A DNA stretch of 63,940 bases, filler included, from Welwitschia mirabilis (taxonomy: Eukaryota), in the NCBI GenBank assembly GCA_051453625.1. It is 7 parts of one record of this genome, joined end to end, with 100 filler letters (N's around TTAATTAATTAA, not from the genome) between each part and the next. Parts side by side here need not be neighbours in the genome. Positions count along the whole stretch, not along the records: positions 1 to 22,844 come from JBOZIK010000001.1; positions 22,945 to 28,319 come from JBOZIK010000001.1; 5 more parts are not named here. One strand, given 5' to 3'. Shown here one piece after another: positions 5,133 through 32,448 of this stretch (its first letter is position 1; the number at the start of each line of letters is the position of its first letter). The notes under the pieces were generated by a model, which saw only the letters and a list, made by a program, of their open reading frames with translations, was not told the DNA's origin and made no database searches. Made by a program: the position numbers and the translations under genes.

Positions 5133-7762
5133 TGAAGAGAATTAAATTATATGTCATTGAGGTCACAATGCCAACAAAATAAACATTAAAATTCTTAGAT
5201 CAATTCTTGGTTTAATTATTATCACTTTAAAATTGTTGTTAACAGATTGATGATTGTAAAGCTAATATGCCATTCCAAAAGCATGGTTTAGATGTGTTTG
5301 TATAAAATGGAGTTTCAACCAAATGAACTATTACTTTACATATTCTTGATTTGGTTATTTTGTAAAACGGCTTTCAATACTTTCTCCATGTTCTTTGTTG
5401 TGTATAGTCTGTAGTGCAATCATAGTCTAGTCCTTGTGAAGTTACGAGTTCATGATTCCCTAAGCAACATCTCAGCTAAAAAATGTCAATTTGCAATGTT
5501 TTTGATAAATTTTGTAATAACATGTGTTCTTAAATTCTGGATATTTACATCTGTCAAATTGTTGAAACTGAAATTTTTGTAATCATGGGTTATGCAAAGT
5601 CTTGAAAATGTTTTTTTGGAAGCTCTATTCCTTTCTTTTGAAATTGATTATTATGAGTATAAAGCCTGTCTATTCTCAAAATGTTGATTCCTTTTTTTTT
5701 TGTTAAGGCCATGGAAATGTGACCAACTCATTTACTGCAGTTACAAGTTTCAGAGACATTATGATGCAAAAAAATGGGACCAGTCTTTACTACTTTGAAA
5801 AAGGTCCTTAATGAAGGAGGAAGCATTTTTCTAAAATTTCTCAGTAGTCTTATTAAAAATATTTTTAGCTTATAAATGCGTCACAAATTTCCAGTGGATT
5901 CAGTGCATCAATGTGTTTATAAGCATAAACGTTCAGGCATTTGTGTGGGAGAGATGTTACCACATGTAGAAATCAAGATTGATAAACATCATGAAACTAC
6001 TTTGAATGGGGAGAACACATGTGACAGGAAAGGACCATCTGTCATGCAAAAAAAAAAAAAAAGGAAGGAAAAAAAAAAGAAAATCCTACAATTGAGTTCT
6101 ACGAAAAATGATCTAATTGTTCACTCCTTCTTCCACTCGTCTATTTTGATTTGATTATTCACTCTTTTCTTCCACTCGTCTGTTGTGCTGCGTACATGCA
6201 GAACCCCTTATCTGTTCTCTGTGTGTATTTTTGTTTTCTTTTAAAAGTGGGAATCATTAAAGATCTCTGATTTTATCAAAAACACTGTAGATTTCAACTT
6301 CTTCTCCAAAAGGCTAGGGAGCTGAGAGATCTTCCTCTATCATCGGTTCTGCCAGGCTTTAGCCATCGGAAAGCAGCAGAGGCAAGAGTAGAGTACAGAG
6401 GCGGTGGCCATGGAGTGAGCAAGGCATTTGTCGACTGCAGCAAATGCTTCATTTTCTCAAATCAGAGCTCAGGAAAAGCCTTGTTATTCCCTTGCTTTTC
6501 TGGGAATTCACCAATCAGATTATCATAGTGGATGAATATTTCGTTGGTATTTCCCAGTAAAACCATACAGTATTCTTCAGAGCCGAGACTGAATTTAGGG
6601 AAGACGTTGATGCTTAGGCATTGTAGTGTTACTGGGATAAGAAAGATAACCCAATCCAACATAAATGATTGCAGAATCCGTTAAAGAAATGGGTACACTC
6701 GCGATGCTGTTAAAACCCTAAAAAGACTCACATTTAGTTACCCAAAACCAATTCTAATGATGAAATTCTTCACGCAAATACTGATGCCAAATTTGGATAA
6801 CAGAAATCGCCTTCAAAAGATTCTGATTTTGGACACCAGAAAGTGCTAGCCAAGGATGGCAGAGTCGTCTCCAATGCCCAATAGGAGTTCTGTTAATTTT
6901 TCCATGATGATAGCAATTCAAAGGGCCATCCTCTCCCACTTTTAGCATATCAAATCATGCTTATTTTGGCTTTATTTTAATTATGATAAAGGCTTTAGAG
7001 GAGAGATGCTGCAGAGTGATGGTTATTCAATTAGCAGAAGACTTGCCCCATTCTTATTCCTTAGTTCTTGTTCTCAATATTACAGTTATCAAAGCCACTG
7101 AAGTAGAAAAGATAGAGAACACAAAGTGTCCAAAATAAGAATTTGCATTTTTCAATTTGGAGGCTCTATACTAAAACAAGTTCAAGTATTTACTTGATGA
7201 TTATTCCATTCCCATTTTATATTTTTTGATTAAATCTATTTATGTGAAGATGGATTTTTCTCAATACTTAAAAGAAATTTTACCGACCTTAACATTGTAT
7301 ATGAATATTATAAGAATTTGGATCATTAGTATCTTATATGTAGCATGGCATTTTGTCATCATTTGGCAAATATGTCAATTTTTCATTTAAATTATTATAG
7401 TACTATGTGTGTAAAACATTATTTTATTTTTTAGCATAGATAAAATCATTTATGAAAACATTTTGGGCTAAAAAAATATTGAGAAATTTTATAGCTTTCC
7501 TTATTATCATGCACCTAATTTCTCATTAGTTTTATTTCGAAAATCTCATTTAAAAAACATATTTTTTAAGTAAATTATGAGAATATTCCATTAAAGATTA
7601 ATTTGAGTCCTTTTGAAGGACAATATAAAAGGAATTTTTATTTTACTTATAAAGAAGTTTTATATCTTTTAATATTTATCTGCATTTCTTTAAAAGAAGT
7701 GTATTTTTTTTTTTTAATTTGTACATCATAATTTTTATATATGTTAAATCCTAGGAACTTCA
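5133..7762 (+). repeat. 5' LTR (~2.6 kb) of the copia element
   Basis: Starts TGAAGAGAATTAAATTATATGTCATTGAGG, versus TGAAGAAAAATTAATTATATCTCATTGAGA right after the PPT at 12371. Ends ...ACTTCA three nt before the PBS. Confidence 0.75.
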
Positions 7763-7765
7763 GTT

Positions 7766-7777
7766 TGGTATCAAAGC
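7766..7777 (+). other. Primer-binding site (tRNA-iMet type)
   Basis: TGGTATCAAAGC, one mismatch to the canonical TGGTATCAGAGC, upstream of gag. Confidence 0.85.
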
Positions 7778-8083
7778 TCCTATATAGTTCTTAGCAATTT
7801 CTAATTCTTAGTAAAAATCCCATTTAGATCTTCTTCTAAGTCTTGTTCAATTCTTGTTCTAATTCCTTTCAATTTTGTTTCCCTAATTCCTATTGTCCAA
7901 AATCCTACCTTTCTCTTGTCTAAGTCTTGATTTAGTTTTCATTAGGCCTTCATAAATCCCATTTTTATCAAATTCCAGACTTCTAATTATTGGAACAAAA
8001 TTGTTGTCAAAATCTTGTTTTTAGCCTCTTCTTGATAAACTTGTAATTCTTGTTCTATTATCAAATCATTACATCCTGAAATC

Positions 8084-11000
8084 ATGGATAAGGAAAAGGT
8101 ACCTCAGTTTGATATTGATTCCTTTAAAGTATGGAAGAGGAGAATGGAGACCTACCTCAAATGCAATGGGCCTTGTGATTATACTAAAAAGGATTTTCCC
8201 TATGCAAGACTTAAGAATGATCTTAAAGACTATGATGAATGTAGAAATGAATATTGTAGGGCTATGACAATCATTCATTCAAGTATTCATAAGAGTGAGT
8301 TTTAAAAAATTAGAAAATTCAAATTAACCTATACATTATGGAGAGGGTTAGATAAGTATATTAAGGACATGAAAACATGAATACTATTAAATTACAAAAT
8401 ATGAGTACACAATTAGACAACATGAATAAGAAAGATAATGAGAGTGTAAAATCTTACATTCAAAGCATCAAAGACCTAGTAAAAAAGATGAAAGATTTAA
8501 AATATGAAGTTAAAAACAATAATTTTGCCCTCAAAATCTTAAGATCCCTTACAAAAGAATTCAAGCCCATAGCTATCACCCTCCATAATGTCTTAGATTT
8601 AATAATCCTCTCTTTATAAGAACTATCTGGTAGGCTTATCCATCATGAGATCATCCTTAAGAAACGCAAGGAGGGAAATACTACTGCTTTGAAAGCATTC
8701 CACTATGGTAGAAGTAGAGGTGGTTATAGAGAAATAGGATAATATAATGAAACAAGAAGAGGCAGAGGCCAAAGTAGAGGCCAAGGAAGAGTATAACAAA
8801 TTAGCCAAAGTAGTGGAAGAGGTAATTTCTAAAATTCCCCATCATACTCCAATTGGAAAGAAACTAGGGAATGCCATTATTGCCACAAAATAGGTCATCT
8901 TATCAAAGATTGTAGGAAAAAGAGATGCAGTACAAGGAAAGCCAACATAGCAAAACAAGTTGAATCCTCTAAGAAAACTAGGTTAGAAAGAAAAGTGAAT
9001 TCAAATAAAAGGAAGAAATTGAAATAGGAGGACATGTGACAAAAAAACAATTAGAATTAACATTATCCTTCAACAAATCGACCTCCCAGTACATTGATAG
9101 TGGATACTCAAAACACATTACATATCAAAGAACTTGTTTCAAAATTTTATTAAAGAAGATCATAAAGTAGCAAGATTTTGGAGAAGAAGCCTTATAAGAA
9201 ATCAAAGTTCATGGCAGCCTTCTTGCTAAAAATTACAATGGTGGAAATTTTACCATTCATGGTGTTTTCTATGTTCTTGATGCCCATTACAATATTATTA
9301 GTTTAGGACAATTAATTAGAAATGGTTTCAAAGCTAAGTTCAAGAATGAGAAGTGCATCTTGCTAAAATAAAAGCAAATTCTAGAGATCCTCAACATAGG
9401 AAACAATATATATTAAATCACATTTGAGAAAGATTTAGTTTCTAGAGAAGCAAAATTTTGGACATAACATAGAAAACTAGGTCACATCTCATCTGAACAG
9501 ATGAAGGAAATAATTCAAGACAACCTTGTTAGGAATTAATCCAATCTCCAAATAGAACCATTGATTCATGAAAGGAACGCATTCAAGGCAAGCAAACAAG
9601 GGTCTAATTTCCCAGAGTTTCAACTAGCTCATCTCAAAAATTATCGTTAAGGCATTTAGATATTTGTGGATCCTTTAACCCTTTAAGTCTAAGTGGTTGT
9701 AAGTATTTTATTACATCTATTGATGCTTTTTCAAGATTATTTTATTTTATTTCTTGAAATTTAAATCTCAAACCTTATAGTCTTTTAAAGTTTTTCAAAG
9801 ATTGATTGAAAGAGAAACAAGTGCTAAGATCAAGTGCTTAGGAATTGATAGAGAAACTTATGCTCCATGATAAAATGGAGTTATGCAAATGAAAAATCAT
9901 TTTCTAGTGGACATGACAAGGAAAATGTTAATTCAAGCTAATCTTAATAAAACCTTTTGGGCTAAAGTAATCAACAATGTAAACTACCTCTAAGATTGCA
10001 TGGTGATAAGGCATGTTGACCATTACACTTCATATGAGCAATGGTATGGAATTAAATTTAGTTTATCTCATTTCTAAATTCTTAAATCTAAGTATCTTGT
10101 TAAAATTACAAAACTAGAGTAAGGTAAATTGGATTCTAGTTTCAAGCCATGTGTATTTCTTAGACATTCTAGTTAAAGAAAGGTATACAGAAGTTATAGT
10201 CCTAATTCAATAAAAATTTTAAAATTCATTAATGTAGAGCTTGTTCCTTTTGAAACATTAAATTCTGACTCTAATTCCAATAACAATGTTTTTCTTTCTT
10301 GTGCTTCCAATTCCAAAGATTCTAATAATGATGATAATGACATAAAAGATTTCAAGTCCTATCCACATCCTAATTCTAATTTATCGTCTATTAAAAATAC
10401 AAATTTTAAATCTAATCAAGTTTCTATTTGATCTAAAATAACTCAAGAAATATTTTTGAATTGTTGGATTAAAATATTGATACTCAATCAAAACATAAAA
10501 AGCTAACCTCTTATCATGATAAATTCAACAACATAAAAAGTAAAGATGCACCTGTAAGAAGTAGAAACCATAAAATCTTAATACCACTGTTGAAGAAAAG
10601 GTATGCAATGATTTTTCAAAGGATTATCTAGATTTAAGTTGTGAATTTTTGAACAAGGATGTTGTTAAACATCCTTATTGGATTAAAGGCTATGGAAGAA
10701 GAAATTTCTCAAATAGAGAAGAACAAGACATGGGTTATTGTTCCTAGGCCTAAAAATAAAGGTTTCATTCCCATCAAATGTATCTATAAAACTAAATACA
10801 ATTATAATGATACAATTAATAAATGTAAGCATCGTCTTGTTATTCTTGGATATATATATATGAAGTAGGCATAGATTATGATGAGACTTATGATCCTATT
10901 ACTCATCTTGAATCTATAAGGGCCTTTCTTGCTTACGCTTTCAAGGATTAGATGATTATTTCACAAATGGATGTTAAATATGCCTTTCCAAATGGGGTCC

Positions 11001-12140
11001 TTGAAGAAGAGGTGTACATCTCACAGCCTCATGGTTTTGTGAAATAAATTATAAAAGAACACATTTATCTATTGAAAAATCATTATATGATTTAAAACAA
11101 GCCTTAAGGGTTTAATTTTCAAGATTAGATTGTTATTTATGAAATCATGGTTATAAGAAATATCATGTTAAAAATACCTTGTATAAGAAAATAAAGTACA
11201 TTCCATTTTTATCTTAATTTATGTTGATGACATTATCTTTGATGACATAGATAAGAAGCTTGTTGATGAATTTAGGAAGATATGAAAAGAAAGTTTGAGA
11301 TGAAAAATCTTGGCAAACATCCTTGCTATGTTGGAATCCAAATCAACATTCTTCAAGGGGTACTTTCTTAATTTAAGGCAAATATGCTTTATTTATGTTA
11401 AAGAAATTGAATATCCATGAAAGTAAATTCGTCTTGATTCCCAGGCCAACCAATCCCTAACTCATAAGCAACATGGAGGGAGATGAGGTTGATGAACATT
11501 ATTATAGACCTATGATTAGAAGTCTAATGTATCTAACTATAACAAGACCTTTCAGTATGTAGTTAGTCTTACATCTTGTCTTATGACATCTTCTAGAAAG
11601 CCTCATCTTCATGCTGTGAAAATAATCTTGCATTATATGGAAGGCACCCTCAATGAGTTGCCTTATGAGGCTAATGAAAACATTCAAATTGTTAGATATG
11701 TTAATGCAAATTATGCATATAGTCTTGATGATAAAAAGATTACCACAAGTTTTGTAATGCTTCTTGTAGAAGCCTTTTCTCATGGATAAGCAAAAATGAA
11801 TCTTGTGTGACTCTTTCTACCATTAAAACCAAATATGTGATAATTCATTTAGTAAGCCAATAATTAATATGGTTTCCTAAGTTATTTGAAGATTTCACTA
11901 CTCTTATTGATAAGAAAATTCATCTCTTGTTTGATAGTTCATCTGCAATTGCAATTTCAAAAAATCCAATTATGCATGCAAGGATTAAACACATTAATAT
12001 AAAGTTCCATTTTATTCAAAATCTTATTGAATATGGACTTCTAATTCTTTGTTCTTATCCTTTGAAATTGTGGTTGGCAGATTTCTTCATGAATGACCTT
12101 TATAAGGAAAGATTCCAAGATTTGAGGAGAGACTCCAAAT
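8084..12140 (+). pseudogene. Disrupted copia gag-pol polyprotein
   Basis: gag N-terminus VPQFDIDSFKVWKRRMETYL, KILRSL, knuckle CHYCHKIGHLIKDC (~8873-8913), protease YIDSG (~9090), integrase HLDICG (~9653), RT AMEEEISQIEKNKTW / QMDVK / YVDDI (~11220), RNase H DSSSAIAISKNPIMHARIKHINIKFHFI. Many stops and frameshifts. Confidence 0.92.
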
Positions 12141-12359
12141 ACTTGACATTAAGTTCAAGGAAGAGAATTAAAAGCAAAACACCAAGATTAGTTGATGTTG
12201 TCCCAACCATAAAATGACAACAAATCATTCTAGCTCTTGGTCACATTCTTGTTTATGCTTCTTATGTAATTGTAAGTATGAAATTGTGTGATTTGAATTC
12301 TCTAATTCCTAATGTAATTCCAAATATGCATATGTGTTGTGCATTGTGATGTTAATGTT

Positions 12360-12368
12360 AAGGGAGAG
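12360..12368 (+). other. Polypurine tract
   Basis: AAGGGAGAG two nt before the TG that begins the LTR-homologous block at 12371. Confidence 0.7.
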
Positions 12369-12370
12369 TT

Positions 12371-13245
12371 TGAAGAAAAATTAATTATATCTCATTGAGA
12401 TCACAATGCTAACAAAATAAGCACTCAAATCCTTAGATCAATTCTTGGTTTAATTATTATCCCTTTAAAATTGTTGTTAATGAATTAATTATTGTAAAGC
12501 CAATAAGCCATTCCAAGAGAATGGTTTAGGTATTTTGACATAAGATGGAGTTTCAAACAAATAACTATTACTTTACATGTTCTTTATTTAATTATTTTGT
12601 GAAAATGCTTTGAATACTTTCTCCATACTCTGTGTTGTGTATGGGTTGTATATTAATTTCAGTATAATTCTTGTGAGGTTATAAGTTCATGATTTTCTAG
12701 GCAACATCTTAACTAAAGATATCGATTTGTGATGTTTTTGACAAATTCTAGAGTTAATATTTGTTCTTAAATTCTTGATAATTAAATTCATCAAATTCTT
12801 AAAACAAAATTTGTGTATGCATGGGTCATGCAAAGTCCTAAAAATGTTGTTTAGAAGCTTTATGCCTTCCTTTGCAAATAGATTACTTTGATAACATTCC
12901 TTAATTGAATGTCAAAACATGGTTGTTCTCCAAACACTAATTTTTTGGTTTTTTCTTTTGGCCTGGGAAATGTTTCCTTAAAACTTCTCAAAAGTGTTAG
13001 TGAAATATTTCCAGTAAACAAAACATTGTTAGCTTATAAAACCATTAAAAATATCCAGTGGATTTTGTGCCTCATTGTGTTTATAAGCATAAAAATTCAG
13101 GCATTTGTGTAGGACAGATGTAACCAAAGATCATTAAATTACTTTGAATAGGAAAAGAGATTTAATAGATAAGGGTCACATGTCATGCAAAAAATACTGC
13201 AATTGAAGTCCACTGAAACTTATCTAACTATTCACTCCTTTCTTC
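12371..13245 (+). repeat. 3' LTR, left part (homologous to ~5133-6172)
   Basis: Colinear similarity, e.g. CTTAGATCAATTCTTGGTTTAATTATTATC is shared. Similarity stops at the MULE TSD. Confidence 0.85.
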
Positions 13246-13350
13246 AGACTTGGCTCACTTGTGGCCTATTTCTCATTAAATGACCAAGTCCTCCTTAATC
13301 ATGGTTAGCTGGTAACATGGTGTGTGCCATGTTATGTTCATAAACATAAT
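13246..13350 (+). repeat. Left terminal inverted repeat of the MULE
   Basis: AGACTTGGCTCACTTGTGGCCTATTTCTCATTAAATGACCAAGTCCTCCTTAATCATGGTTAGC...GTTATGTTCATAAA is the reverse complement (with transitions and one small indel) of ~24415-24523. Confidence 0.85.
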
Positions 13351-14019
13351 GACCATGGCCATCATGCAATAGCCAAAACAACATTTATCTTCTAAACTAT
13401 TCTCAGTTTATGCACGTTTTGGTTAGCATTTGTTGTAAGGAAGGAGATTACATGTTGCTGTGGTCTTTGTCTCTAGTGTGAAGGAGGAGAAGAGGGAAGG
13501 AGAGGCCTGGGAGTGGAATCTGTTGGATTTGAAGATGTGCTAGAATGTTATTCCAGCTTTTGTACCTCTTACAGATTTTCACAATTGTCTAGATGTCATC
13601 GAACAGGTCCTTGGGCAAAATAATGGCTAAAAAAAAAAAAAGAATGATTTCGCTGGATGATAAGAGTTTGAAAAAAGATTTTCATTATGCAATGGTATAG
13701 AAGAAGTGGAAAAAGAGAAATAGCAAGAAGACAAGAAAGATTTCAAAAAAGAAGAGCAAGAATACGATGAGTCAAAGTATCACCTGACAAGGAGGAGATT
13801 ATTAGAGAGGATGAAAGAGAGGATGAAAATAGAGTGGAGAATGACAAAGTAGAGGAGGTGAATGTGTTTGAAAATGATTTCTTAAACGAGGAATATTCTT
13901 TGAATACATTGTTGCAATCAGAATATTTTCACTGCTGTTCTATGTGCTGCTTCATCGATCACCGAGAATCCAAATGAAAAGGTAAAGATCCTTCACTTTA
14001 TTATCACTTCAAGGAATTT

Positions 14020-16016
14020 GGACAAAGATATTGTTATGGGGGCTGCTCTTGTAAATGGTTATGTCAAGTGCGGCAATATTGATGTTGAATTTCGTCTGTT
14101 TGATTCAATGCCAGAATGAAATAAATATATTTGGACAATAATTCTTTCTAGCTTTGCTTAGTTTGGAAGATTGGAAGAAGCAGGTCTCTTTTTTGATCAA
14201 ATGCCTAAAAAGATCCCAGATTCTTGGTGTACAATGGTTTTAGGTTATGCCCGGATAAGAGACATAGAAACAGCAGAAGTTCTTTATAAAAGAACACCTA
14301 ATAAATGTCTTGTGTCTCAGAATGTGATGATTATAGCTTATGCATAGAATGGTAGAAATGACTCTGCAAGAAAAATCTTTGATCAAACGGGTAAAAGAGA
14401 ATTGGTTTCTTAGTCTTCCATGATCGCAGGGTATGCTCAACAAGATTAAGAAGCAAAATCTCTGAAGCTGTTTGTTGATATGCAGAGAGAAAACATAAAG
14501 ACCTACTCAACCCACCTATGTTAGTATTATTAATGCTTGTGCCCATATGGGTGTCTTGGAAGACGACAAACAGATACAAGAACATAGCATTAAGACAGGA
14601 TTCCTATTCGATCAATTTGTTGGTAATACCCTAGTTACAATGTATGCAAAGTGCAACCATGTTGAGGTTATCTCCAGGGGTTTTGATTACCTGTCTGAAA
14701 AGAATTTAGTCCCCTTGAATGTTGTCATTTTTGGATATACTCTGAATTCAAAAATTAATAATGCCTACAAAATTTTTGATATGATGGGTGAAAGGAATTT
14801 GGTTTCATGAACGGCCATGATTGGTGGATATGTCCAAAATGAGGACAGTCAAGAAACCCTAAGACTTATATTGAAATTCTTAGGTAAGGGATCAGGCCTA
14901 ATGAATCTACCTTTTCTTCCATCCTCACTGCATGTGCCCACCTTGGGGCTCTGAATCAAGGTGAACAAGTGGAGGAAACAGTGATCAAAGTAGGCTTAAA
15001 AGATGCTCTATGTGTGGGAAATTCTCTTAGTCACTGTGTATGCAAAATGTGGAGGCAATGAAGCTTTGAAGGTATTCAACCAAATGCCCTACAAAATGTG
15101 ATTTCATGGAATACCATAATAGGAAGGTTAGCCCAACATTGTCAGAGTAACAAGGCCCTTGAATTCTTTGAGAGGATGAAGTTATCTGGAGTCACACCCA
15201 ATGCCATGACTTTTGTTTCAGTTCTTTCTGCTTGCAAATACGCAGGATTGGTCGAAAAGGATAAATACTATTTTGAATCCATGATCCGGGATTATCAGAT
15301 GGTTCCTGTGAGAAACACGATGCCTACATGATGGATTTTTTGGGTCATTCCGGAGTAGTGGATGAGGTAAAAGAATTCATCAACAGTATACCTATTTAAC
15401 CAGATGCAGTTGTCTAGGGTGCTTTGCTAGATGCATGTAGAATATGCCCAAATGCCGAATTAGCAACATATGCAGCTAAAAAGATTTTTGAATTGGAACC
15501 TGATAATTCTAGCAACTATACTTTACTGTCCAACATTTATGCTTCAATGGGCATGTGGAATGATGCTCAGAAGGTGAGAAAGATTATGATTGATAGAAAG
15601 GTGAACAAGGAATCAGGTTGCAGCTGGATTTAACTTAAAAGCAAGCGGCGGACTTTTACAAGAAAAAGCAGGAACCATTCTCTTTTGAACAAGACATATG
15701 CGAAATTAAACAAGCCTTTTTGACAAACGAGAACATTGGTTATATGCCTAATACAAAATTTATCATGCATGATGTTGAGGAAGTGTAGAAGGAATACATT
15801 CCTTCTTAACATAGCGTGAACATCTAGCTCTTGCTTATGGACTCATTAGTATTCCTGTTGGTGCACTGATTCATGTCATGAAGAATCTTCGTGTGTGTGG
15901 TGATTGTCATGCTGCTGTCAAGTTCATAAGGCATCACTCAAGAGACTATTTTGAAAGATCCTATTCGTTTTTACTATTTCATTAATGGATACCATTCTTG
16001 TAAGGATTATTGATGA
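14020..16016 (+). pseudogene. PLS-class pentatricopeptide repeat pseudogene with E/E+ and DYW deaminase domains (organellar C-to-U editing-factor family)
   Basis: PPR motifs AALVNGYVKCGNID..RLFDSMPE, FVGNTLVTMYAKC, ISWNTIIG, GVTPNAMTFVSVLSAC. E domain LLDACRI..FELEPDNSSNYTLLSNIYAS. PG-box equivalent KESGCSWI. DYW domain GYMPNTKFIMHDVEE, frameshifted [21 protein letters not shown], ending SCKDY* (TGG->TGA) then TGA. No introns evident; many stops and frameshifts. Confidence 0.95.
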
Positions 16017-16949
16017 GGCTAATACACACAAGTGCAGAAGAGGTTCATGTTATTGTTTGAATCTAATTATGTCAGGGTAACTCCATTCCATGTAATGGTT
16101 GTAGTTCAATGATGTTTGTCTCTGGATGTGGATTCCTAAGTGTTAAATAGAGATAAATAATAATCTCATACATGACTGACATATTTAATCAAATTTTCAA
16201 ATACTGCAATAATTCATGCACTCCTTTTAATATCTCAATTTTTGGCCAGAATAGAATAAGTTAACCCACAAGTGTCTATATTTGCAGAGCCTACTTTTTA
16301 TAATTTTTTCTATGTCGGAAGCAACTCATAAAGATTGGCTTCTCCACAAGTGATGAATCAAAAACTAGATAACCCATATCTTCATCTTGGCTTAAGATCA
16401 TCATGCCTCTCATTTGAGCTTTACAAATTGTCTGAGCACAATCAGTTCTCTAACTATCAGATCCACCTCATTGGACATTAAAGCATTAAGTTTGAATGAC
16501 ATACATTGGTAGACAAAATATACCAAGTCTAGAAATCCTCCAATCACCCTCTTAAGGACTGTCCCATACAATTCACTCAAGGGCTTCCTGACTTACAGCA
16601 TTAACAGGCATCTGATAGCTTCAGTCACCCATAAAAATAATCGAGCTGATGATAGTCATGTGGATTATATAACCTTACAAGAAGCTCATTCCTTTACTCA
16701 TCAAAGTGTCATTTGACATCTACGGAGATGGAGAACTTAAAAGATCTGTGATGGGTCATCTTAAAAAGGGCAAGAAAGGGCAAGAGGAAGGTACTAAGCT
16801 AAACTTAATTAGTTGATAATTCAAAAAACAAACTTGATGCACTGTGGTACTTATATGTTGTATTTGGCATTTAATATTGTTATCCTGTTAAGAACAACAA
16901 ATCATGGATACTGCCTACAGCTTATAGACTTTGGCATCTATTCACACTT

Positions 16950-19900
16950 TCAAGTGCCAATAAGATGTGGACAATTGGTCCCTTGGCAAGGAGGCCAAGG
17001 CTATGTACAGCCCAAGATATTCGCTCAGTTAGATGGGCATGAGATGCCTGTACACTTTATCACTCTATTTGTTTTTAGGATGAAGTACACTCTTAATAAC
17101 TGGCCTGGCTTCTAAAAGCTCACTGAAAGATTTTACTACAGCATCCCATGTGCCTCTTTACTATTGTGGGTTTATCTATTAAGGGCAAATGCACCAGCTT
17201 GACTAAAATTCTTCCACTTACCATGTTGATATATAGAGAAATAATAGTGACACATGCTTCTTGAGTAATGCCTTCAAAAGCACATTGCTGTGCTTTGTTT
17301 GACAAACTTAACTCGTGAAAAAGATTGGGTAACACCTTGGGTTCTCTAATACACAGACAAACAAACCAACATTCATGAACCTACAAAAGCTATAGTTATG
17401 TAAAAAACCTAAGCAGTACCCACACAAGGCATCTGCAAGGCTTGGTGATCTAATCAAAATCTGAACCTTACTCTGTTGGTCAAACCTCTGCTGCATGTGC
17501 TCATATACAAACATGCAAGTGCAAACACAAAGGAGGGTCTCTATTATATGAGAAGAATCAAGGTAACATAAATTCTAAAATAAGAACTTTGAGTTCTGCC
17601 TAGGGTAGTTTGGTTTGTTTTTCTGATAAGCTGCAGACATCCATCAGTAAATTGCTAAAATAGTTGTGTGTTGGATGCCATGAACTTCTTATACATTCTT
17701 CACACCATGAAATGTCATTATCATAACCAATGAATAGGGAATAGGTTAAAAAAATTCAGAAGTTCATCCTAAAAATATGCTTTTTTTTTATACATCTTCA
17801 GATTTCTGAACCTATGGTGGAGTCCACGAGTGGATGAAAGTTGAGATTTTAAACAGGAAAAGTACTACTCATACCAATTTTTACTTTTCTTCATTATTTC
17901 ATTACTAGAACAATCTCCAATGGGAGGAGCACTAAAGATCTTGTGATAGAAACATGATGTTGGATTGCATACAATATCATAGATAATCTTCCAGGAGTCT
18001 CCCTTAACTCATGTCTTAAATCTAGATGCTCAAACACACCCAAGAAGTCCGTCATAGGAATAGATCAGCCTATAGGCTTCTCTACAAAGCATGAATAAGG
18101 GGCACATGCTGTGTCTGTGCAAGATGAGAATGGGCAACTCTGAGATTTTCTTTAATGCAAGCCCTTTGCTTACCAGTTAATGGTTGTTTCGTTTCCACTG
18201 AAATTGCACCCAAATGATTGGGTAACTACAAACAATGCAAATAAGGGCAAATGATACTATAGAGTAAACCATCAAAGACAACAATAATCTCCTCCTTATT
18301 CTTTCTACCACTTGCCATTCGATAATCCATAGCAAGAGAAAGGATAGGTATCTAGAGGTTAAATAATTAGGATCCACAAGATACACTATACAATGGATGG
18401 TGAAAAATGCAATGTAGGCTATACAGCTATGATAAGTTGCTTGAAATTTTGTCCAATAAATGAAATATGTTTTGTAATCAAACTGTCTTGAAACACTTCA
18501 TCAGGATGAGTTTGCATTACATTGTTTGATATGCATATCATAGAGAACATTGCTTTGCAAACCCTTGATCTTGTATAGTCGACACTAAAGGGTAAAATTT
18601 AAATTAAAGATAGAATTAAATCAAGTGAAAATAGCATTTGTAATCCATGGTCTTGAATTTCAAAGATACACAAAAATAATACAATTCTTAGAAACTCGCA
18701 TGTGCTTGCATTATTTAATAAATCTAACAGGACTACAATCTAAATTATTTTGCCTACATCGTGACTTATACTACTAGAATTTAGCTCTAGATTTAATAAG
18801 TACAGTGCTGTAATGTGAATTGCAAAAATGAACATTAACTCCTTCGCGTCCATCCTTGGAATTACAATCAAGATACAACGTCAAAGCAAATTCTTTTTAA
18901 TATTTGTAAGATAGGTTAAATTCGACAAATAGCGTGATTATAGAATGGTATCAAATTATGCAATGGCAGTAGGGGATGCAAGGAAATGAAGGAAAGATCA
19001 AGCCTAGTCAAAGCAACATGCAAGACTTGAATCACATGTCTAATTAAAGCAACATGCAAGACTTGAATTACATGCCCACTCAGACAATAGAAGTTGATGG
19101 CTTTATTTTGTGCATGAACCACTTGCCTCTATCCTTGTTTCTTTCTTATCTAGAATCAGCTGATGTAGCTTACAATCTAAAGGTGAAAACTTCTAGTGGT
19201 TCAAAGGTCTTCAAAGCCATTTTTTACTGCCACGAAGATTTCTACTACATGCAAAGACTGTCTTCTTTACTTTATAGTATTCTCTTTTAGGAAGACAATC
19301 ATTTCCTTTGCTTGGGCCCTTTGATACTTATTTTGTAGAATACATCCATTTCTTTATCACTGATTTCTTAGTTAGTAGCAATTTCTCTTCTCAAAACCTC
19401 TTACCAAGATTTGTAAACCATGTTAATATTAATTGCATAATCTTCATAGGATTTAACCTATGTAGTGCCTTTTTGATAGGGCTGAGTTATTGATCTAAAC
19501 CAGCTTCTAGTCGTTCATCCTTAATAGAAGATGTATTCTCTGTAGGTAAATTTCTATCTTGCAACTTAACACCATTAATAGAAGATAAGTTTGATTTTGA
19601 GCCTAAAGCATCTTCATTTTGAACAATCATACTGTTATCACTAGACTCAAGAGATCTTTGAAAGAGAGAAATGTTACCAAAGAGATCACAGAAATATTTT
19701 CCTAAAGATCTTCATCACATACATTCTTGTTCATGTTTAAACTTTCATGTGCCTCCATTACTTCATCAGGAACATTATAGAATAATGTTTTTTCATGTTA
19801 GTTATTTTCTAAGAAAGATGACAACCAAACATTAGATGACTTAGGCTTTAGAAGGGGCCCTTCTTGAATTTGAACATCAACTTTTCTTAGATCCATTAAA

Positions 19901-20400
19901 ACTTGCATTGCTAATGATGTAAAAGTGACTTTTTACAAGATTTAATTCCTCTATATTCCATGTTGAATGGCTTAATGTTTTGAGAATTAACACCTTCATG
20001 TTTAGCTCTATTAGGATCAACACTTTTATAGTATAACAATGTCTTTGCATCTCATCAAAACTTTTAGATGTAGAATGCTAATCTATGTGCCTTTTTTCTT
20101 TTCATACATTCAACATTCTTCCGTAAACACTCTCCACCCAATCTCTATATTCCATGACTTAATCGTGCAATAAGATCCATCTTCCAATGCCTTCTTTATA
20201 TGAAATCATTCACCATTCAAGTCATCTCACTAAGAACCACATCCCAGTGCAACATTCATCTCTTAGGTTCCTCCTAATTTTTTTAAAGTTTTGATGATAT
20301 AATTCAAACCGCATGCATTATTAGCACTTTTCAATTGCTTTTGATGCATCTGATGATTATGCTTTATCATTCGCAAACAAGGAGATACAGAAGAGGATTT
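16950..20400 (-). pseudogene. Decayed EAF1-like (NuA4 scaffold; HSA + SANT/Myb) gene fragment with introns
   Basis: Manual minus-strand translation. HSA motif EEPKR*MLHWDVVLSEMT*MVNDFI*RRHWKM (~20150-20275; cf. [23 protein letters not shown]). HEKTLFYNVPDEVMEAH (~19745-19800; cf. EENLFYAVPPGAMETY). SANT-like HEL/GDSWKIIYD..FYHKIF (~17915-18070). An AG/GT-bounded 159-nt open exon at 17380-17222 (NLFHEL..AFEGIT). Reference motifs are from memory and unverified. Confidence 0.62.
19009..19076. repeat. Short tandem duplication (2 x ~36 bp)
   Basis: AAAGCAACATGCAAGACTTGAAT(C/T)ACATG occurs twice. Confidence 0.85.
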
Positions 20401-22844
20401 ATTTCCTATGGTAATTGAATGATCAATTTCTTTTATCATTGAAACCCTTCAGGGCACTTTAAGATTGACATGACATAAAATCTACATTTGGAGATATAGA
20501 TCTACATAGCATAAATATGAATTTTGAGCATTCAACCTTTGCCTATCATTGCTTTAAAGACTTAAATGCATAGATGAATGCATGTCTTTTATCAGGGTTG
20601 AGAATAAGAGAAAGTATCTAAACTAGTAGAGGCAGGAAACATTTATTATTGAGCAAACACCATTACTATAGAGTAACTCACACTCTGATTTCTTATCCCA
20701 CATTGTAAAGGAAATGGATTAATCATTATTGTCTTATTTTAGAAATACGAAATATAAAAAATCTAGCTAGCCAAGAAGAATGAGTTACAGTTAAACCAAT
20801 TTAAATGCCTAATTCATAGATGTCTAGACCTTCATGTGTTATGTTACTAATGCCTTTGAAGCTTGAATTTACTTTAATCTGATCTATAAAAGATTACAAC
20901 AATACTAAACAACTTAAAATATATAAAATATTATAGCAACTTAAGCAAAATTAAGCTTTTTCATGAGTCTGAAGCATTCCCATCTATTGTAATTTTAAAT
21001 TAGAAAATTTTAACAAATGAAAAAAAGATGCAGGCCCTCCTTTTTTATTTGTCTTGGGACCAGCATTAGGGTGTATTCCAACATCATGTAATTATACATT
21101 CTAATGGTAGAGTTACCTACATTAATACTTAATTTTAGAGATATACATGGTAATATGTTAGAAAAAAAAATATTTATCTAAATTATTTAAAAATTTATAC
21201 CTTACCTTCTCAGAAGTTATAGGCTGTAGACTATAGCTGCTATTAGAAAGTAAATAGGCTTAAAATATATTAAATATTATAGCAAAATAACAAACAATCA
21301 TATTGTTAACATTACATTTAGGAAATCAATATGAGATATTCAAAATGTTTTCTAATATAGATAAACAAAATTAACAAGCACAAAAATGGCAAGCCTCATT
21401 CAATAATAGGTAAATCAGAGTCATCCAAATGAATACTAATATTTTTACTAAATGAATTAGATTGCCTTCTTCTCTTTTTTGGACTAATAAAACTCCTCAA
21501 GAATTTTTTTTGAGTATATCTATCCATCTACTGTAGAAAATGTAAGGGAAGAAAGCATTTCATTAACTATCTTTTTAATATAGATAATGACATCAACATC
21601 TTGTAGAAACATATATTAAAGTTTGAACTTTTTTTTCACAACCTATATTGTATTACTTAAAGGTCTTCGATTTTTTTGTTTTGACTAGAGTCTTTAGGAC
21701 CAGAATTCATATCAATTTTTTATTCTTTCACATCAGCTTCCAAGATTATAAGCTGAGATAGATCAACCACTACTTCATGGAAAATTGAAAAATCTTTGTC
21801 CAGTTTTAAATCATCTATGCTTATTTTAGTTATCTAAAATATGCGTTTCCTTGCAAACTCTAAACCTCTTGTTAGAATCATTATTTTAATTATGTGCTTG
21901 CATATGTGACCTGTTTTGAATCATTGACATTTACACTTAATTGCATACAAGTATGCCTTCATTATATGGTATATTACCTCACGTGTATTGGGTTTCTGAC
22001 TTCGAACATAATAGCCATCCTCACATATATTATCAAGCAAGCAATCTTTATTGGTAATGGGAATAGCCTTGTCCAATAAAGCTTTGTTATCTTTTTGTAA
22101 TTGATAATTTACAATAAATTTAGCACCTTAAGTCTTACTGTTGCGGTGTGTATTTNNNNNNNNNNNNNNNNNNNNNNNNNNNNNNNNNNNNNNNNNNNNN
22201 NNNNNNNNNNNNNNNNNNNNNNNNNNNNNNNNNNNNNNNNNNNNNNNNNNNNNNNTTATCAAATACACTTAAGTTGGCGGCGCAACACTTACTTTATTTT
22301 AAAAATGTATTTATGGTTGAGAGAGATATTAAACTAGTCAACTCTCTTAGTGAAACATGCTTTTTGTCACTGAGAAACTTGTACTTTAGTAAACCATGGT
22401 AAGATTCAATTGCGTTATTTGTATGTTGTTGTGCATGTGGAACATCATGATATACCTTTACCCACATATCTAAAAGGATAAATAATTTTAAAAATAAGAA
22501 GNNNNNNNNNNNNNNNNNNNNNNNNNNNNNNNNNNNNNNNNNNNNNNNNNNNNNNNNNNNNNNNNNNNNNNNNNNNNNNNNNNNNNNNNNNNNNNNNNNN
22601 NTTGTATGTTGTTATGCATGTGGAACATCATGATATACCTTTATCCACATATCTAAAAGGATAAATAATTTTAAAAATAAGAAGTTACATAAATTTATTA
22701 TTTTGGTTAATAATTATTTTATATGCTAAATAAACTTTCAAATACTCAACTTACTTTGTTTATCAGTGGATAGACAATTTTTTTCTAAATAACTAACAAA
22801 TAAACTTTGATGTACAAAGTCATATACAAATTTTAATATCTCCA

Positions 22845-22944
22845 NNNNNNNNNNNNNNNNNNNNNNNNNNNNNNNNNNNNNNNNNNNNTTAATTAATTAA
22901 NNNNNNNNNNNNNNNNNNNNNNNNNNNNNNNNNNNNNNNNNNNN
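22845..22944. other. Artificial contig/scaffold linker N44-TTAATTAATTAA-N44 (also at 28320, 49595, 52614, 60994, 62635)
   Basis: Six identical 100-nt blocks; the 12-mer puts stop codons in all six frames. Confidence 0.95.
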
Positions 22945-24414
22945 TTATAATGATCTTTCTTGATTCACATGACTCTCCTGATGTCTTATACCTTTCCATA
23001 TGTAAGTTCCTGAATAAATGATGTAAACCATCCATCATACCCTTTTTTTGGGGCATTTTCAAGACTTCACTTGCCATAAATTTATTGTAAGTCTGGTTAC
23101 ATACAAATTTCTCAAAGGATTAACATTTTGTAATATAAAACTGAAACAAGTCAAAAGCTACAAGGTTTTCAAGTTTTCTGACTATGTATTAACAATTGAA
23201 AAAAGAAAAACATAAAGGCTCTCATAATTTTATTTTGACCATGATTTTGTATTAAATTAAAAGGTAAGGCATTTAAAGCACCTCAACTACCATGATCTCT
23301 ATACCTGAAATGTACATAATAGCTTTTATAATAAACAAGGAATTCCTATCTTTTGCTTCCTCTTTCATTTTAATAGGATGAATTAAAACTAACTTTTATT
23401 GATTTTTAAGAAAACAAGTGCACTAGCTTGGAACAAGAATAGAAGCTTTTCTAAAATGATTGCAATGTACTGCAAATTTTATAGTTTTAAGTAAAAGTTA
23501 TCATGTGCAATTGTAATTCAGTGATCTTAGTGCGAGAGTTCTAAAAATTTTCTTCCAGTGTTTGTTCCTTCTTTATTTTTTATGGCATTTCTACTTCTTT
23601 AAGAATATGTCCCATCATTTTGGGTTACTAACCCTTTCTATAATAGGATTTCTGTGAATGAATTTGAATAAGTCCTTAAGAAGTTTTCTCTGTATCTACG
23701 CTTCTCATTTTTAAATTTAGACGAATTCGAAACAAGCATATGACAATAGATTAAGCAAGTACTCTAGTTGGCTGGTAGATAACATTAAAAAAATTATTTT
23801 AACCTATACTTATCATTCTATTTTCTGTTCATTTTCATTAAATCTTTTGCAAAACTAATCAAGATATGATATAAACAATGTCATACTGAAACATAAATCA
23901 ATAGAAAGCATTTTGCGAAAACATCTCTAAAACTATCAAACTAGGTTAGAGCTTCCACTTTGGAATTTGAGCTTCTGGAGGGAAATGGCAATCTCAAAAA
24001 ACCACATTTTGTTATACTCCAGGAAATCCATGGCATCAAGTAAAGGAACATGAACTCGAAATTTCTAAAGCCTCAAATCTACAGCATCAAGCATAGGCAA
24101 AAATGGGTGTCAAGGTAGAAATGTGCCAAAACCCTCCTATTTTGCTCTTCAGAAAAAATGTGAATGCATGTCAGAACATTCTTTTATTGCAATTCTTCAA
24201 CACCTTTCATAAAACTATAGAGGATATAGCCATCTAAAAGCCTCTAGCCCAAGATCCTTCTTGATGAACAACTTTCATTCGATACATCTAATAGCCTTTA
24301 CTTTAAGTTTTCTAGTGTACAACAGTATACGCACCTTCTAAAGAAAATTATGATGCACCATTTCATTAAATTACTTTGCAGCTTTACTTAAAAATAACTT
24401 TTTAAATATTGCAT

Positions 24415-24523
24415 CACATTTATGAACATAACATAACATACGCCATATCAGTGGCTGACCATGATTAAGAAGGACTTGGTCCATCTCATTTATTAAGAAA
24501 TAGACTGCAAGTAAGTTAAGTTC
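24415..24523 (-). repeat. Right terminal inverted repeat of the MULE
   Basis: Plus strand reads TTTATGAACATAAC...GCTGACCATGATTAAGAAGGACTTGGTC...CATTTATTAAGAAATAGACTGCAAGTAAGTTAAGTTC, followed directly by the TSD. Confidence 0.85.
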
Positions 24524-26100
24524 CCTTTCTTCCATTCATCTATTGCACCAAGTCCCTGTAGAAATCCTCCCCTATTTCTCTCGATGTTTCCTCCCCTTCA
24601 AAAATGGAAATCATAAAAAGATCTCCTCTTTCATCAAAAAATGACAAATTTCAACATTTTTCCCAATAGGCCAGGAAGCTAATAGATCTCCCTCTATTGT
24701 TGATTCCACTAGGCTTTAACCATTAAAAGGTAGCAGAAGCAGAAGTAGAGGAGAAAGGCAGTGGCCATGGCTCGATTTAGATCTCTGAGGAAGTCTTGTT
24801 ATTTTGTTTTTTTTCTAGGAANNNNNNNNNNNNNNNNNNNNNNNNNNNNNNNNNNNNNNNNNNNNNNNNNNNNNNNNNNNNNNNNNNNNNNNNNNNNNNN
24901 NNNNNNNNNNNNNNNNNNNNNNNNNNNNNNNNNNNNNNNNNNNNNNNNNNNNNNNNNNNNNNNNNNNNNNNNNNNNNNNNNNNNNNNNNNNNNNNNNNNN
25001 NNNNNNNNNNNNNNNNNNNNNNNNNNNNNNNNNNNNNNNNNNNNNNNNNNNNNNNNNNNNNNNNNNNNNNNNNNNNNNNNNNNNNNNNNNNNNNNNNNNN
25101 NNNNNNNNNNNNNNNNNNNNNNNNNNNNNNNNNNNNNNNNNNNNNNNNNNNNNNNNNNNNNNNNNNNNNNNNNNNNNNNNNNNNNNNNNNNNNNNNNNNN
25201 NNNNNNNNNNNNNNNNNNNNNNNNNNNNNNNNNNNNNNNNNNNNNNNNNNNNNNNNNNNNNNNNNNNNNNNNNNNNNNNNNNNNNNNNNNNNNNNNNNNN
25301 NNNNNNNNNNNNNNNNNNNNNNNNNNNNNNNNNNNNNNNNNNAAAAGTGGATGAAGTTGAATAGTTCTCTCATTTCTTTGGACTAGAGGTGAACTTTGCC
25401 TTAGTATTTTCTAATAGAACTATAAAGTAATTTTCAAAGCTAAGAGCAAACTTAGGGTAGAGGTTGATGACTTGACATTGTAGTCTTACTAGGATGAGAA
25501 AGATAATTAAACCCAACATAAATGGTTGCAGAATCTATTACAGGGATGGACATGCTTACTATGTTTTCAAGAACCTAAAAAGATTCACATTCGATTATCA
25601 AAACTGATTCTTATGATGAGATTTTCACTTAAATGCTAATGCAAATTTTTGAGAAATTACCTTCAAAGACACTAATGTTGGCTAGTGGAAAGTACCAGCC
25701 AAGGATATGAGAGTCATCTCTGATGTCAAATAGGATTTCTGTTAAATTTTTCTATGATGATAGCAATTCAAGGATCATTGTCTGCCACTTTTAGCATATC
25801 AAATCATGCTTATTTTTAATTTATTTTAATGATGATAATCTATGATAAAACGAAGGTTCTTTATAAACCATATTTAAGGGCTTTAGAGGAGAAATGATAC
25901 AACATAGTGATTATTTAATTGAGTGACTCCTCTTTTAAATGACTCTCCTTGTTTCCATTTCTTATGTTCTTGCTCTTATTATTAGAGTTATAAAAGCAAC
26001 TAAAGCAGAAATAGATGACACAGAGGGCGTCAAATAAAAATTTACATTTTTCAAAGCATCTATTTCCAAACCAATTCCTCTGTGTTCCTATTATTATAAG
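24524..26100 (+). repeat. 3' LTR, right part (homologous to ~6164-7180)
   Basis: Shared blocks such as ATGATGATAGCAATTCAA and CCACTTTTAGCATATCAAATCATGCTTATTTT, in the same order as in the 5' LTR. Includes a ~520-nt N gap. Confidence 0.85.
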
Positions 26101-26105
26101 CTTTT

Positions 26106-28319
26106 TGTTAAGATGTGGCTCAAATCTGAGCATACATATCTATGTACTTCATGTATGATGTGGCATCTAAGCCCCTTGGATTATCATCCAAGCCCATAGT
26201 TTCTTACTCAAAACGTTGGACATATTGTGCTATATATATGAAGCAGCCTTAGCTTTCAAAGATTAAGGGATGCAAAAATATTTTGCTAAGCTTCCATCTT
26301 ATCAAGTGGTATCAGAGAACTTGTTTGATCTTGTCTTCTGTGCTACCGTCGCTACCCCTTCTCTGTGCTATTATGCTGGCTTTTACTCCTGCATCTCCAT
26401 GCAGCACCGTGTCTTCGCTTCGTCTCTGTTCTAGCTGCCTCATCACTACGTTGTCACCTCCTATCAGTGCGATTATTATGCATTCGTGGTGCTTCCATGC
26501 CTTTAACATTTTCTTGCACCTCTCAGCATGTCCTTTCGTATGCTTCTCGGCATGTTTCCATCCAAACGCTGACATCTATGTGCTTTCTAATCTGTTCAGT
26601 GCCTTTCTCAGCCTACTCTTTGCTTTTAGAAGCATTGTGCCATTTGGATCTAATCTTGGCATCTTTGCCCTTCCTCCATTGTCGCTTCTTCAAAGTGTCC
26701 ACTGTTATTCCTGCTACACGTTATTCAATAGACCTACCTCTCATTTTTTGCCTCGTGTTTATACTCTATGCATAACATTGTCAATGCACTTAGTAACATT
26801 AATCCGAGAAATCATAGAGTCTGAGTGGTTTTGCAGCTAAAACTCCGTCTACATCTTTATCCCTATATGTATCTCTGTTCAAACGTTCTTTAGTTTTTAA
26901 ACTGCCTCTGCATTAAAGCTCACCTGTCTGGCTCATACATAATAGCGTTTTTGAGCAATGCATAATTTGCTAGACAATGCCTGCTTGTAAGCTGGTTGCT
27001 AGTCACCCTTTACTATGTGGAGACTGCTGATCCCTGCATTCTTAGTCAGCGCCTGTTTCTTCACATAACAACTATTTGTTTTTTTTTGCTTTACTTTCGC
27101 AGTGCTTAGTATCTTAACCTCTTATCAAGTGCCTTCTTACATAGTTTTTTTTGGAGTTGTTTCTTAGATGTGGTGCCTTTTTTTTCTTTTTTCTAGTAAT
27201 ACTATTGTTTACTATAGTATTACTTATTTACAAATAATATTGGCCTTTATTTACAAAGCTCACAGATCAATTATTTATGTATTATTAGGTTAGGATGCCT
27301 TATAACAGAGTTGGGGAACTAAGCACACCTCTACTGTGTTGGTTTTTTTTTTTTTTTGTTTTTTTTTGTTATTCTTATTTGGACACCTAGAGTCTATGTT
27401 AGTTTTCATAACTCCTCTATTTTAGGATGGCCACCGTGACAAAGTTTGACATTGAAAAATTCGATGGTAAACTGAGTTTTTCTATTTAGCATGTTTAGAT
27501 AAGGGTCGTTCTCACTCAAAATGGCTTGAAGAAGGCCTTAGATGAAAAAGCAAAAAAACTCAATGCCATGTCCGATGAGCAATGGAAAGAGTTAGACGAA
27601 AAGGCCTTAACAACAATCCAATTATGTTTATCCAAGGAGGTCCTCTATGAGGTCATCAGTGGGATCACTGTTACTAGTTTATGGCTGAAACTGGAAGCAC
27701 TGTACATGACGAAGAGAGTTGCCAACAAGCTTCGACTCAAGGAACATTTGTTCACCATTCACATGTCTGAAGATACTCTTGTTCAAGCACATCTAAATAA
27801 TTTTAATTTAATTATAATGGATCTTGAAAATCTTGATGTGCATATTGAAGATGAAGATAAAGCTATGTTATTAATTGTCTCTCTACCTCCTTCCTATAGG
27901 CATTTTAAAGAAATTATATTGTATGGTGGTCTAGATACCTTATCTTTTGAAGATGTTAAAGCCCATCTTTTGTTCAAAGAAAAGTTTGATTCAGAGTTTT
28001 ACTCTAAAGACAAGGATGAAGGTCTAATAATTAGAGGTCTAAGTCATGATCATGTACATACTAAGAACTATAGTAAGTCCAAGTTAAAGTCAAGAGGACG
28101 TAAGTCCAATAGTAAAACCTGTCGGTATTGTAAAAAACTTGGACATGAGCTTCCTGAATGTTATAAATTAAAAAATAAACAGGACAGGAAAGTAAATAGG
28201 AAATAACCTCATCAGTTCACAGAGGCAAGCATAATTGAAACTAATACTAAAGGTGATGTATTATTATCTCAGTCTTCTACTGATGATAGATGTTCATCGG
28301 ATTGGATTCTTGATTCAGG
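26106..28319 (+). mobile_element. 5' portion of a Tnt1/Tork-like Ty1/copia element (short ~200-bp LTR, PBS, long leader, gag, start of protease)
   Basis: TGTTAAG...CTTATCA (26106-26304), PBS TGGTATCAGAG (26307-26317), gag and DWILDSG just before the linker gap. Confidence 0.85.
27427..28319 (+). pseudogene. Copia Gag (UBN2-type, CCHC knuckle) and start of aspartic protease
   Basis: MATVTKFDIEKFDGKLSF.. with two early stops, a 226-aa open stretch (DEKALTTIQLCLS, IEDEDKAMLLIVSLPPSY, CRYCKKLGHELPEC), then WILDSG. Confidence 0.9.
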
Positions 28320-32125: not shown

Positions 32126-32448
32126 ACTAATAGGATTGAGAACCCTAGATGGGGGTGAATAGGATTTTTTAAAAATATACAACACTATATTCTAAATGAA
32201 TTCAATATTAAAACAAAAAGACTTGCACATAGTAATTAACTAATTCAAAATGTACATAAAACAGTAAAATAACCGAAGTAAAGAAATAATAACTAGAAGC
32301 ACAAAAGCACCAAATGGATGCACGTAGGGTTTATAGTGGTTCAGAAACTCCCCTACTTCACTCTCGACAATCATCTTATCCCCAAGCTAGATCCAAATCT
32401 TCGTTACTCTACTAGGTATTCCAAGTTTACCTGTAACCTTTATAAATA

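Follow-up and report, generated by a model that had tools for sequence, protein, structure and literature searches.

Pack-MULEs, Mutator-like elements (MULEs) with host gene sequence between their ends, were reportedly described by Jiang et al. in 2004. In the excerpts of PMC3310237 used here, the hallmarks of MULEs are a target site duplication (TSD) of 9–11 bp and long terminal inverted repeats (TIRs); tomato Pack-MULEs are most abundant at 1.0–1.2 kb, with few exceeding 2 kb, and a maize MULE of 10.7 kb appears in a table. Where an element contains transposase-related sequence, the scheme of the Jiang group, as excerpted, places it among the auto-MULEs. A survey of vascular plants, gymnosperms among them, covers gene capture by transposable elements (TEs), Mutator being one of these (excerpts of PMC13477047). 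The element considered here occupies positions 13246–24523 of a 63,940-nt stretch of the Welwitschia mirabilis genome (GCA_051453625.1), called the window in the following. It is bounded by TIRs and a 9-bp TSD and interrupts a long terminal repeat (LTR). We read it as an old MULE that inserted into the 3′ LTR of a decayed copia retrotransposon, carries gene sequence, and is derived from a coding MULE or still is one. We assign this reading a probability of roughly 70%.

The two ends of the element were compared by local alignment of its first 200 nt (from 13246) with the reverse complement of its last 200 nt (to 24523). Positions 13248–13344 pair with 24521–24419, with 78 of 97 bases identical, a single 6-nt insertion or deletion and a score of 84, against a best score of 28 among 500 shuffles and of 30 among 1671 random 200-nt pieces of the window. 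The inverted termini proposed in the initial annotation are real and their alignment is significant. With a length of 97–103 nt, they have the size of the long TIRs of the Mutator superfamily (~100 bp or more). A repeat search and self-BLAST recover only their core (63 nt, 82.5%, E 4e-8 in self-BLAST), and neither self-BLAST nor a sequence search found another copy of the TIR cores in the window, inside or outside the element. Composite or “two-element” transposition was rejected because no internal copy of either core is present in the window.

Directly outside both ends lies the same 9-bp sequence, CCTTTCTTC, at 13237–13245 and 24524–24532. The two copies agree at all nine positions, as initially reported, the tenth base outward differs, and the length falls within the 9–11 bp typical of MULEs. 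The assignment to the Mutator superfamily stands on this duplication, the ~100-bp TIRs and a terminus that is multi-copy in the genome (see below). The hAT, PIF and CACTA superfamilies were rejected on account of the 9-bp TSD and the long TIRs, and no such transposase appeared in the Pfam scan.

Self-BLAST yielded two direct repeats of ~1.9 kb, which align over 5133–5650 and 12371–12885 (81%), 5856–5962 and 13020–13126 (84%), and 6544–6989 and 25401–25838 (77%). Between them stand copia remnants on the plus strand, with Pfam matches to Retrotran_gag_2 (5.2e-11), zf-CCHC (0.006), Pol_BBD (1.1e-6) and, below its cut-off, RVT_2 (2.6e-4), identifying the repeats as the two LTRs of an old, decayed Ty1/copia element. 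The second of these LTRs is broken between 13245 and 24524. After removal of the element and one copy of the TSD, the joined sequence of 13020–13245 and 24533–24821 is colinear with 5856–6510 in the sister LTR, with 405 of 511 paired bases identical (79%) and no break across the junction. This bears out the earlier observation that LTR homology stops at 13245 and resumes past the insert, and the uninterrupted sister sequence quoted with it is indeed found at 6156–6185. The target motif occurs in tandem in the sister LTR, at 6120–6143 and 6160–6185, the first copy aligning slightly better.

As a separate observation, this motif is part of a ~44-nt tandem duplication in the sister LTR, at 6113–6187 (TTCACTCC(T)TTCTTCCACTCGTCT). 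In the interrupted LTR the motif is single.

Parts of 13000–22155 are contained in 13 public runs from four studies. Logan contigs of four runs (X1, X5, X8 and X9) were aligned to 12600–22844 at a likeness of at least 90%; the summed depth given in the following adds up all such contigs and should not be taken for a copy number. Position 13247 is the exact start of matching for 17, 14 and 12 contigs in three runs, and their flanks are unlike (agreement 0.43–0.45). Behind 13283, contigs leave the window in all four runs (16, 17, 13 and 8), and continue with GATGGGCCAAGTC..., a continuation close to the sequence of the right TIR at that place, where the left TIR has a 6-nt deletion. Depth in the bin of the terminus is 93, 143, 20 and 18 for the four runs; the corresponding values of the flank are 4, 7, 0 and 0.65. 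Because the contigs share the start at 13247 and have unlike flanks, the outer 37 nt are the conserved terminus of a multi-copy family. The left boundary is thus where the initial annotation had placed it, and it is the defined terminus of a real multi-copy family. The multi-copy character is read from this shared terminus.

To survey the coding content, 97 stop-to-stop open reading frames (ORFs) of at least 40 amino acids in 13246–24523 were scanned against Pfam, with rows retained at E ≤ 0.01. Ten ORFs gave any row, and in seven of the 97 it was PPR, E_motif or DYW_deaminase, in an ordered series on the plus strand. PPR repeats occur in the ORFs at 13904–14116, 14162–14344, 14499–14807, 14888–15058 and 15062–15328, followed by the E motif at 15418–15630 (E_motif, 4.6e-22) and the DYW deaminase at 15815–15982 (DYW_deaminase, 3.1e-13). 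All domains of a PLS-class PPR-E-DYW gene are present and in order, but they do not share a single open frame. The seven ORFs lie in frames 2, 2, 0, 2, 2, 1 and 2, and the E+/DYW region is split over three frames with stops, ending in ...SCKDY and a stop codon at 16011–16013. As the domains are scattered over three frames with in-frame stops, the locus is a pseudogene. It begins ~650 bp inside the left TIR and reads inward.

No poly(A) run was found after the stop codon, and no tandem or flanking repeat structure around the PPR block; there is thus no indication that it landed in the element as a retrocopy. Two other Pfam rows, TMEM131_like_N (0.0018) and DUF4193 (0.0078), were below cut-off and taken as chance. 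The ORF track had been said not to show the structure of the element, which is too strict: it displays part of it, the run of PPR ORFs and the SWIM-type ORF described next.

On the other side of the element, the minus strand reads ...DMWVKVYHDVPHAQQHTNNAIESYHGLLKYKFL... at 22500–22297 and, at 22127–21840, a CxC...CxH motif interrupted by one TGA. With X at the stop, the latter piece matches the Pfam family SWIM (PF04434) with E 5.4e-4 and 19.9 bits (cut-off 19.6). A word-indexed homologue search with the 68-amino-acid transposase-like ORF, covering proteins of ≤2000 amino acids, gave no match. A HMMER scan of the 96-amino-acid SWIM piece against 1.84 billion representatives returned four matches, two of them aligned over 80 residues; the other two were multi-stretch matches to long proteins with unrelated Pfam families and were taken as chance. 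One of the 80-residue matches, P0003, is a 620-amino-acid “uncharacterized protein” of Cryptomeria japonica. Its residues 260–380 match a ZSWIM1-3 RNaseH-like domain (27.5 bits, cut-off 27.2) and the MULE domain (PF10551, 26.5 bits, cut-off 27.6), both upstream of the part matched in the element. Searching with P0003 yielded 21 proteins, including P0003 itself, from ferns, conifers, Ginkgo and angiosperms, mostly annotated as “uncharacterized” or “SWIM-type domain-containing”.

When these 21 proteins were compared with the window by tblastn, only their C-terminal parts aligned, at 22470–21549 on the minus strand, with 25–49% identity and best E-values of 1e-8 to 2e-9. A 717-position hidden Markov model (HMM) built from the 21 SWIM/MULE-domain plant proteins was then used, with all filters off, to search 3255 pieces of the six-frame translation of the window. 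It gave colinear matches for HMM positions 456–504 (5.8e-11), 525–588 (3.1e-5) and 592–608 (0.0036), and a further piece, positions 429–453 at 22741–22842, was not significant (E 0.81). Judged by this homology, the element retains the C-terminal third of a predicted MULE/SWIM transposase-type gene, which reads inward from the right TIR. As assembled, the element cannot make transposase. Because the homology runs into the unsized linker gap at 22845, the absent 5′ two-thirds, with the DDE core, may be deleted or just unassembled. In view of this gene part and the adjoining gap, the initial description of the element as non-autonomous is not supported.

The depth of the public contigs separates the two sides of the element. 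In the LTR flank it is 4–7 (X1, X5). Along the element it is mostly 2–30 at 13284–20807, rises to 100–450 at 20808–22175 and reaches 942–16,725 in the bin 22176–22517, and the right-hand 2 kb are clearly repetitive genome-wide. The assembly breaks within this repetitive transposase region. With 25–49% identity to every family member and a location in repetitive DNA (depth 100–16,725), the remnant looks more like a TE gene than like host sequence captured recently, and we infer that it is the element’s own gene in preference to a recent host capture. In the left part, the depth at 13284–13625, beside the TIR, is ~2–3 times that of the flank, and in other runs paralogous contigs of 90–92% identity cover pieces of 13672–17739. 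These contigs may represent either the parent locus of the PPR gene or further copies of the element. The features of the locus are collected in Table 1.

Two short stretches within the transposase-like exon region, 22257–22287 and 22415–22452, have extreme summed depth in all four runs (bins 942–16,725), and are bordered by loose ends at either side. A very abundant repeat apparently shares them.

Table 1 Features of the element and of the interrupted retrotransposon, ordered along the window.
Feature	Position	Strand	Basis
Sister (5′) LTR of the decayed Ty1/copia element; uninterrupted target site at 6120–6143 and 6156–6185	5133..6989	+	self-BLAST, alignment
Copia internal remnants: gag, CCHC knuckle, Pol_BBD, RVT_2	8365..10865	+	Pfam
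Interrupted (3′) LTR, 5′ part	12371..13245	+	self-BLAST, alignment
TSD, left copy, 9 bp, CCTTTCTTC	13237..13245		sequence
Left TIR; outer 37 nt (13247–13283) multi-copy in the genome	13246..13344	+	TIR alignment, public contigs
Near full-length PPR-E-DYW (PLS-class pentatricopeptide) pseudogene, intronless, with several frameshifts and in-frame stops	13904..16013	+	Pfam
2.47-kb segment without counterpart in other genomic copies of the flanking repeat (putative)	18353..20822		contig joints X1, X8, X9
PIEZO-like ORF, 46 amino acids, tentative	18602..18739	-	Pfam PF25288, E 2.8e-6, 28.0 bits vs cut-off 29.6
AT-rich (19–27% GC), genome-wide repetitive part	20823..22844		contig depth, composition
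Predicted MULE/SWIM transposase-type gene, C-terminal remnant: “HTNNAIESYHGLLK” exon and SWIM zinc finger broken by TGA	21837..22500	-
100-N gap, unsized, without overlapping flanks	22156-22255
100-N gap, an unmerged 83-nt overlap (22419–22501 = 22602–22684 at 97.6%)	22502-22601		self-BLAST
N44-TTAATTAATTAA-N44 linker gap, unsized, without overlapping flanks; transposase-like homology reaches its edge	22845-22944
Right TIR	24419..24523	-	TIR alignment
TSD, right copy, 9 bp, CCTTTCTTC	24524..24532		sequence
Interrupted LTR, 3′ part, including the gap 24822–25342	24533..25838	+	self-BLAST, alignment

From this arrangement the following course of events can be proposed. The ~100-bp TIRs would have been bound by a MURA-type transposase, either provided in trans or at one time the product of the element itself, and cut-and-paste integration with a 9-bp staggered cut would have produced the duplication of CCTTTCTTC. 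The right part would represent the MULE backbone, which is AT-rich and repetitive and has the remains of a transposase-type gene on its minus strand. The left part differs in composition (33–39% GC against 19–29% on the right) and would be a more GC-rich block acquired from the host, together with the near-complete, intronless PPR-E-DYW gene, which would later have become a pseudogene. Further host pieces may sit in the left block. We infer both the mechanism of the capture and the joint movement of the PPR block with the element.

Several points weigh against this interpretation. The DDE/RNaseH-like core was not found, HMM positions 1–428 being unmatched in the 3255 six-frame pieces of the window, and no coding homology is detectable in the 1.5 kb that separate the linker from the right TIR. 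In several plants, members of the P0003 family carry ordinary gene annotations (“uncharacterized” or “SWIM-type domain”) with isoforms, and the remnant could be a captured piece of such a domesticated host gene. Contig depth, as a sum over contigs, is no copy number, and the contig evidence spans 12600–22844. Finally, the left junction is spanned by a single X1 contig (1118 nt, no differences, 12600–13274), and by 29 nt, which is short of the 31 nt required; X1 may in addition be the sample from which the window itself was assembled.

The first of these points lead to a different view of the element, as a true Pack-MULE that never coded for a transposase. All coding pieces would then be captured from the host, and the SWIM/MULE fragment would stem from a domesticated SWIM-type gene. 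Such an origin would agree with the lack of a DDE core, with the presence of a C-terminal fragment only, and with the resemblance of the P0003 family to conserved host genes, which are found in RefSeq with isoforms and from ferns to angiosperms; host-type sequence is also seen in the PPR pseudogene and the PIEZO-like ORF. However, the fragment is 25–49% identical to all 21 family members, which is far from a recent capture, and it lies in DNA with 20 to >1000 times the summed contig depth of the flank. Moreover, its homology ends in an unsized gap, so that the 5′ part may be present but unassembled. We consider a true Pack-MULE unlikely and prefer the derivation from a coding MULE.

Another alternative concerns the history of the insertion. 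Contigs of X1, X8 and X9 join 18340/18352 straight to 20823, the sides of the joint measuring just 24–39 nt, which hints that other copies of the flanking repeat lack 18353–20822. A much smaller MULE might have inserted and been inflated later, with the PPR block and/or 18353–20822 arriving afterwards by nested transposition, repair filler or gene conversion. In that case no 11-kb unit would ever have moved. The existence of copies without the segment would fit this scenario, as would the compositional mosaic of the element. Yet no TIR, TSD or LTR signature was found around the PPR block or at 18353/20822, no poly(A) follows the PPR stop codon, and the sides of the contig joints are very short. 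The depth of ~2–3 times the flank at 13284–13625 and the ~91% identical contigs over 13672–17739 rather hint at joint repetition of the subterminal DNA with the PPR block. Later inflation is therefore very unlikely in our view, and the insertion of a MULE that already carried the PPR block remains preferred.

The weakest alternative, a scaffolding artefact in which the right-TIR contig (22945–24821) was misplaced and the 11-kb element is a chimera, could draw on the three gaps within the last 2.4 kb, one of them a six-frame-stop linker, and on the repetitive nature of the region, but it is hardly credible because on this contig the LTR resumes precisely at the base at which the left contig breaks off, correctly ordered and oriented and flanked by the 9-bp TSD, and its homology is carried on by the following contig (25343 onward), a fit that chance placement would not give.

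The initial annotation had described the cargo as a multi-gene block of host DNA. This is weakly supported: a single host gene, the PPR-E-DYW pseudogene, is robust, and for a second there is the PIEZO-like ORF in the middle part, which remained below the Pfam cut-off (Table 1). A homologue search with this ORF, covering proteins of ≤2000 amino acids, gave no match; plant Piezo proteins are longer than 2000 amino acids. A PDB sequence search with the ORF and with a neighbouring ORF of 106 amino acids yielded chance-level ferritin rows (E >1) or nothing. Among 69 further short ORFs at 16000–20830, one had a Pfam row (SAB, 0.0075, below cut-off), a relaxed Pfam scan of 13 ORFs added nothing to PIEZO, and Rfam had 0 matches over 12000–26000. 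The PIEZO-like ORF is possibly a captured exon.

The size of the element has to be seen against the state of the assembly. Thirty runs of N, which amount to 24 separate gaps, interrupt the window, a draft plant scaffold whose PPR-E-DYW genes mark it as land-plant DNA. The element comprises 11,278 assembled bases, including 288 N and a 12-nt linker. Because two of its three internal gaps are unsized, 11.3 kb is a lower bound. Six linkers of 100 nt with the structure N44-TTAATTAATTAA-N44 lie at 22845–22944, 28320–28419, 49595–49694, 52614–52713, 60994–61093 and 62635–62734. They are of the six-frame stop type and join contigs. In a full-text literature search for the 12-mer TTAATTAATTAA, none of the matches listed was by its title concerned with assembly linkers. 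Near-identical duplications of 59–84 nt directly abut four of the 100-N gaps (1838–1937, 2202–2301, 22502–22601 and 33094–33193). These four look like unmerged contig overlaps of zero or negative length and not like absent sequence. The gap at 24822–25342, in the interrupted LTR, is sized at 521 N, against ~40 nt between the homologous points of the sister LTR. Either it is overestimated or the interrupted LTR holds a further insertion there.

Outside the element, further retroelements populate the window. Just downstream of the interrupted LTR, an open frame of 235 amino acids at 27499–28203 (+) has a strong match to a copia-type gag (Retrotran_gag_2, 3.9e-32) and is part of a second, better preserved copia element. 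More long repeats, both direct and inverted, with 72–80% identity, pair 32130–33735 with 38105–39544 and 36198–38149 with 49142–46744. These are probably further LTRs or nested retroelements.

The locus provides a clean and internally controlled case of a MULE insertion, in which TSD, TIRs and the paralogous empty site all lie within one window. It contains an almost complete host gene, and recognizing the PPR ORFs as a transposon-borne pseudogene is useful for the annotation of the draft genome. The expansion of the PPR editing-factor family is usually ascribed to retroposition. It is conceivable, if rather improbable, that the PPR-E-DYW gene moved whole (2 kb) as cargo and that the ~91% identical paralogous contigs are further TIR-bounded copies. 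If true, MULEs would constitute a DNA-level route by which whole PPR editing-factor genes are multiplied in a large plant genome. What is known of Mutator elements or of gene capture is left unchanged by this case.

Compared with the Pack-MULEs of rice, maize, tomato and Arabidopsis, as far as the excerpts of PMC3310237 and PMC5861414 describe them, the element shares the long TIRs and the 9-bp TSD. It likewise has host gene sequence between its TIRs, located near one of them and reading inward, and no intact transposase is assembled. Unlike the Pack-MULEs in these excerpts, it is ~10 times as large as the modal tomato element (1.0–1.2 kb), carries a near-complete gene of 2.1 kb instead of a short fragment, and contains transposase-related sequence, be it its own gene or a captured host relative. 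With the coding MULEs or auto-MULEs (MuDR-like), in the excerpted parts of PMC3903597, it has in common a MULE-domain/SWIM-type remnant in an AT-rich backbone, reading inward from a TIR. Stops interrupt the degraded remnant; both degradation and nested insertions are described there as common in coding MULEs. It differs from these elements in that the DDE core was not found, the matches being confined to positions 456–608 of the 717 in the family HMM (429–608 with the non-significant colinear piece), and in that its nearest proteins form a ZSWIM1-3-like plant family; the comparison was made with that family and not with a MURA sequence. Similar to the TE captures surveyed in PMC13477047, to judge from its excerpts, host coding sequence lies within a TE and has turned into a pseudogene; the survey is genome-wide and BLASTN-based, unlike the account of a single element given here. 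The initial impression of an unusually large element is valid in relation to typical Pack-MULEs, such as those of tomato, but not in relation to MULEs generally, given the 10.7-kb maize element. In sum, the size of the Welwitschia element is large among Pack-MULEs though not among MULEs as a whole, and the element is of a kind already known, a MULE with captured host DNA.

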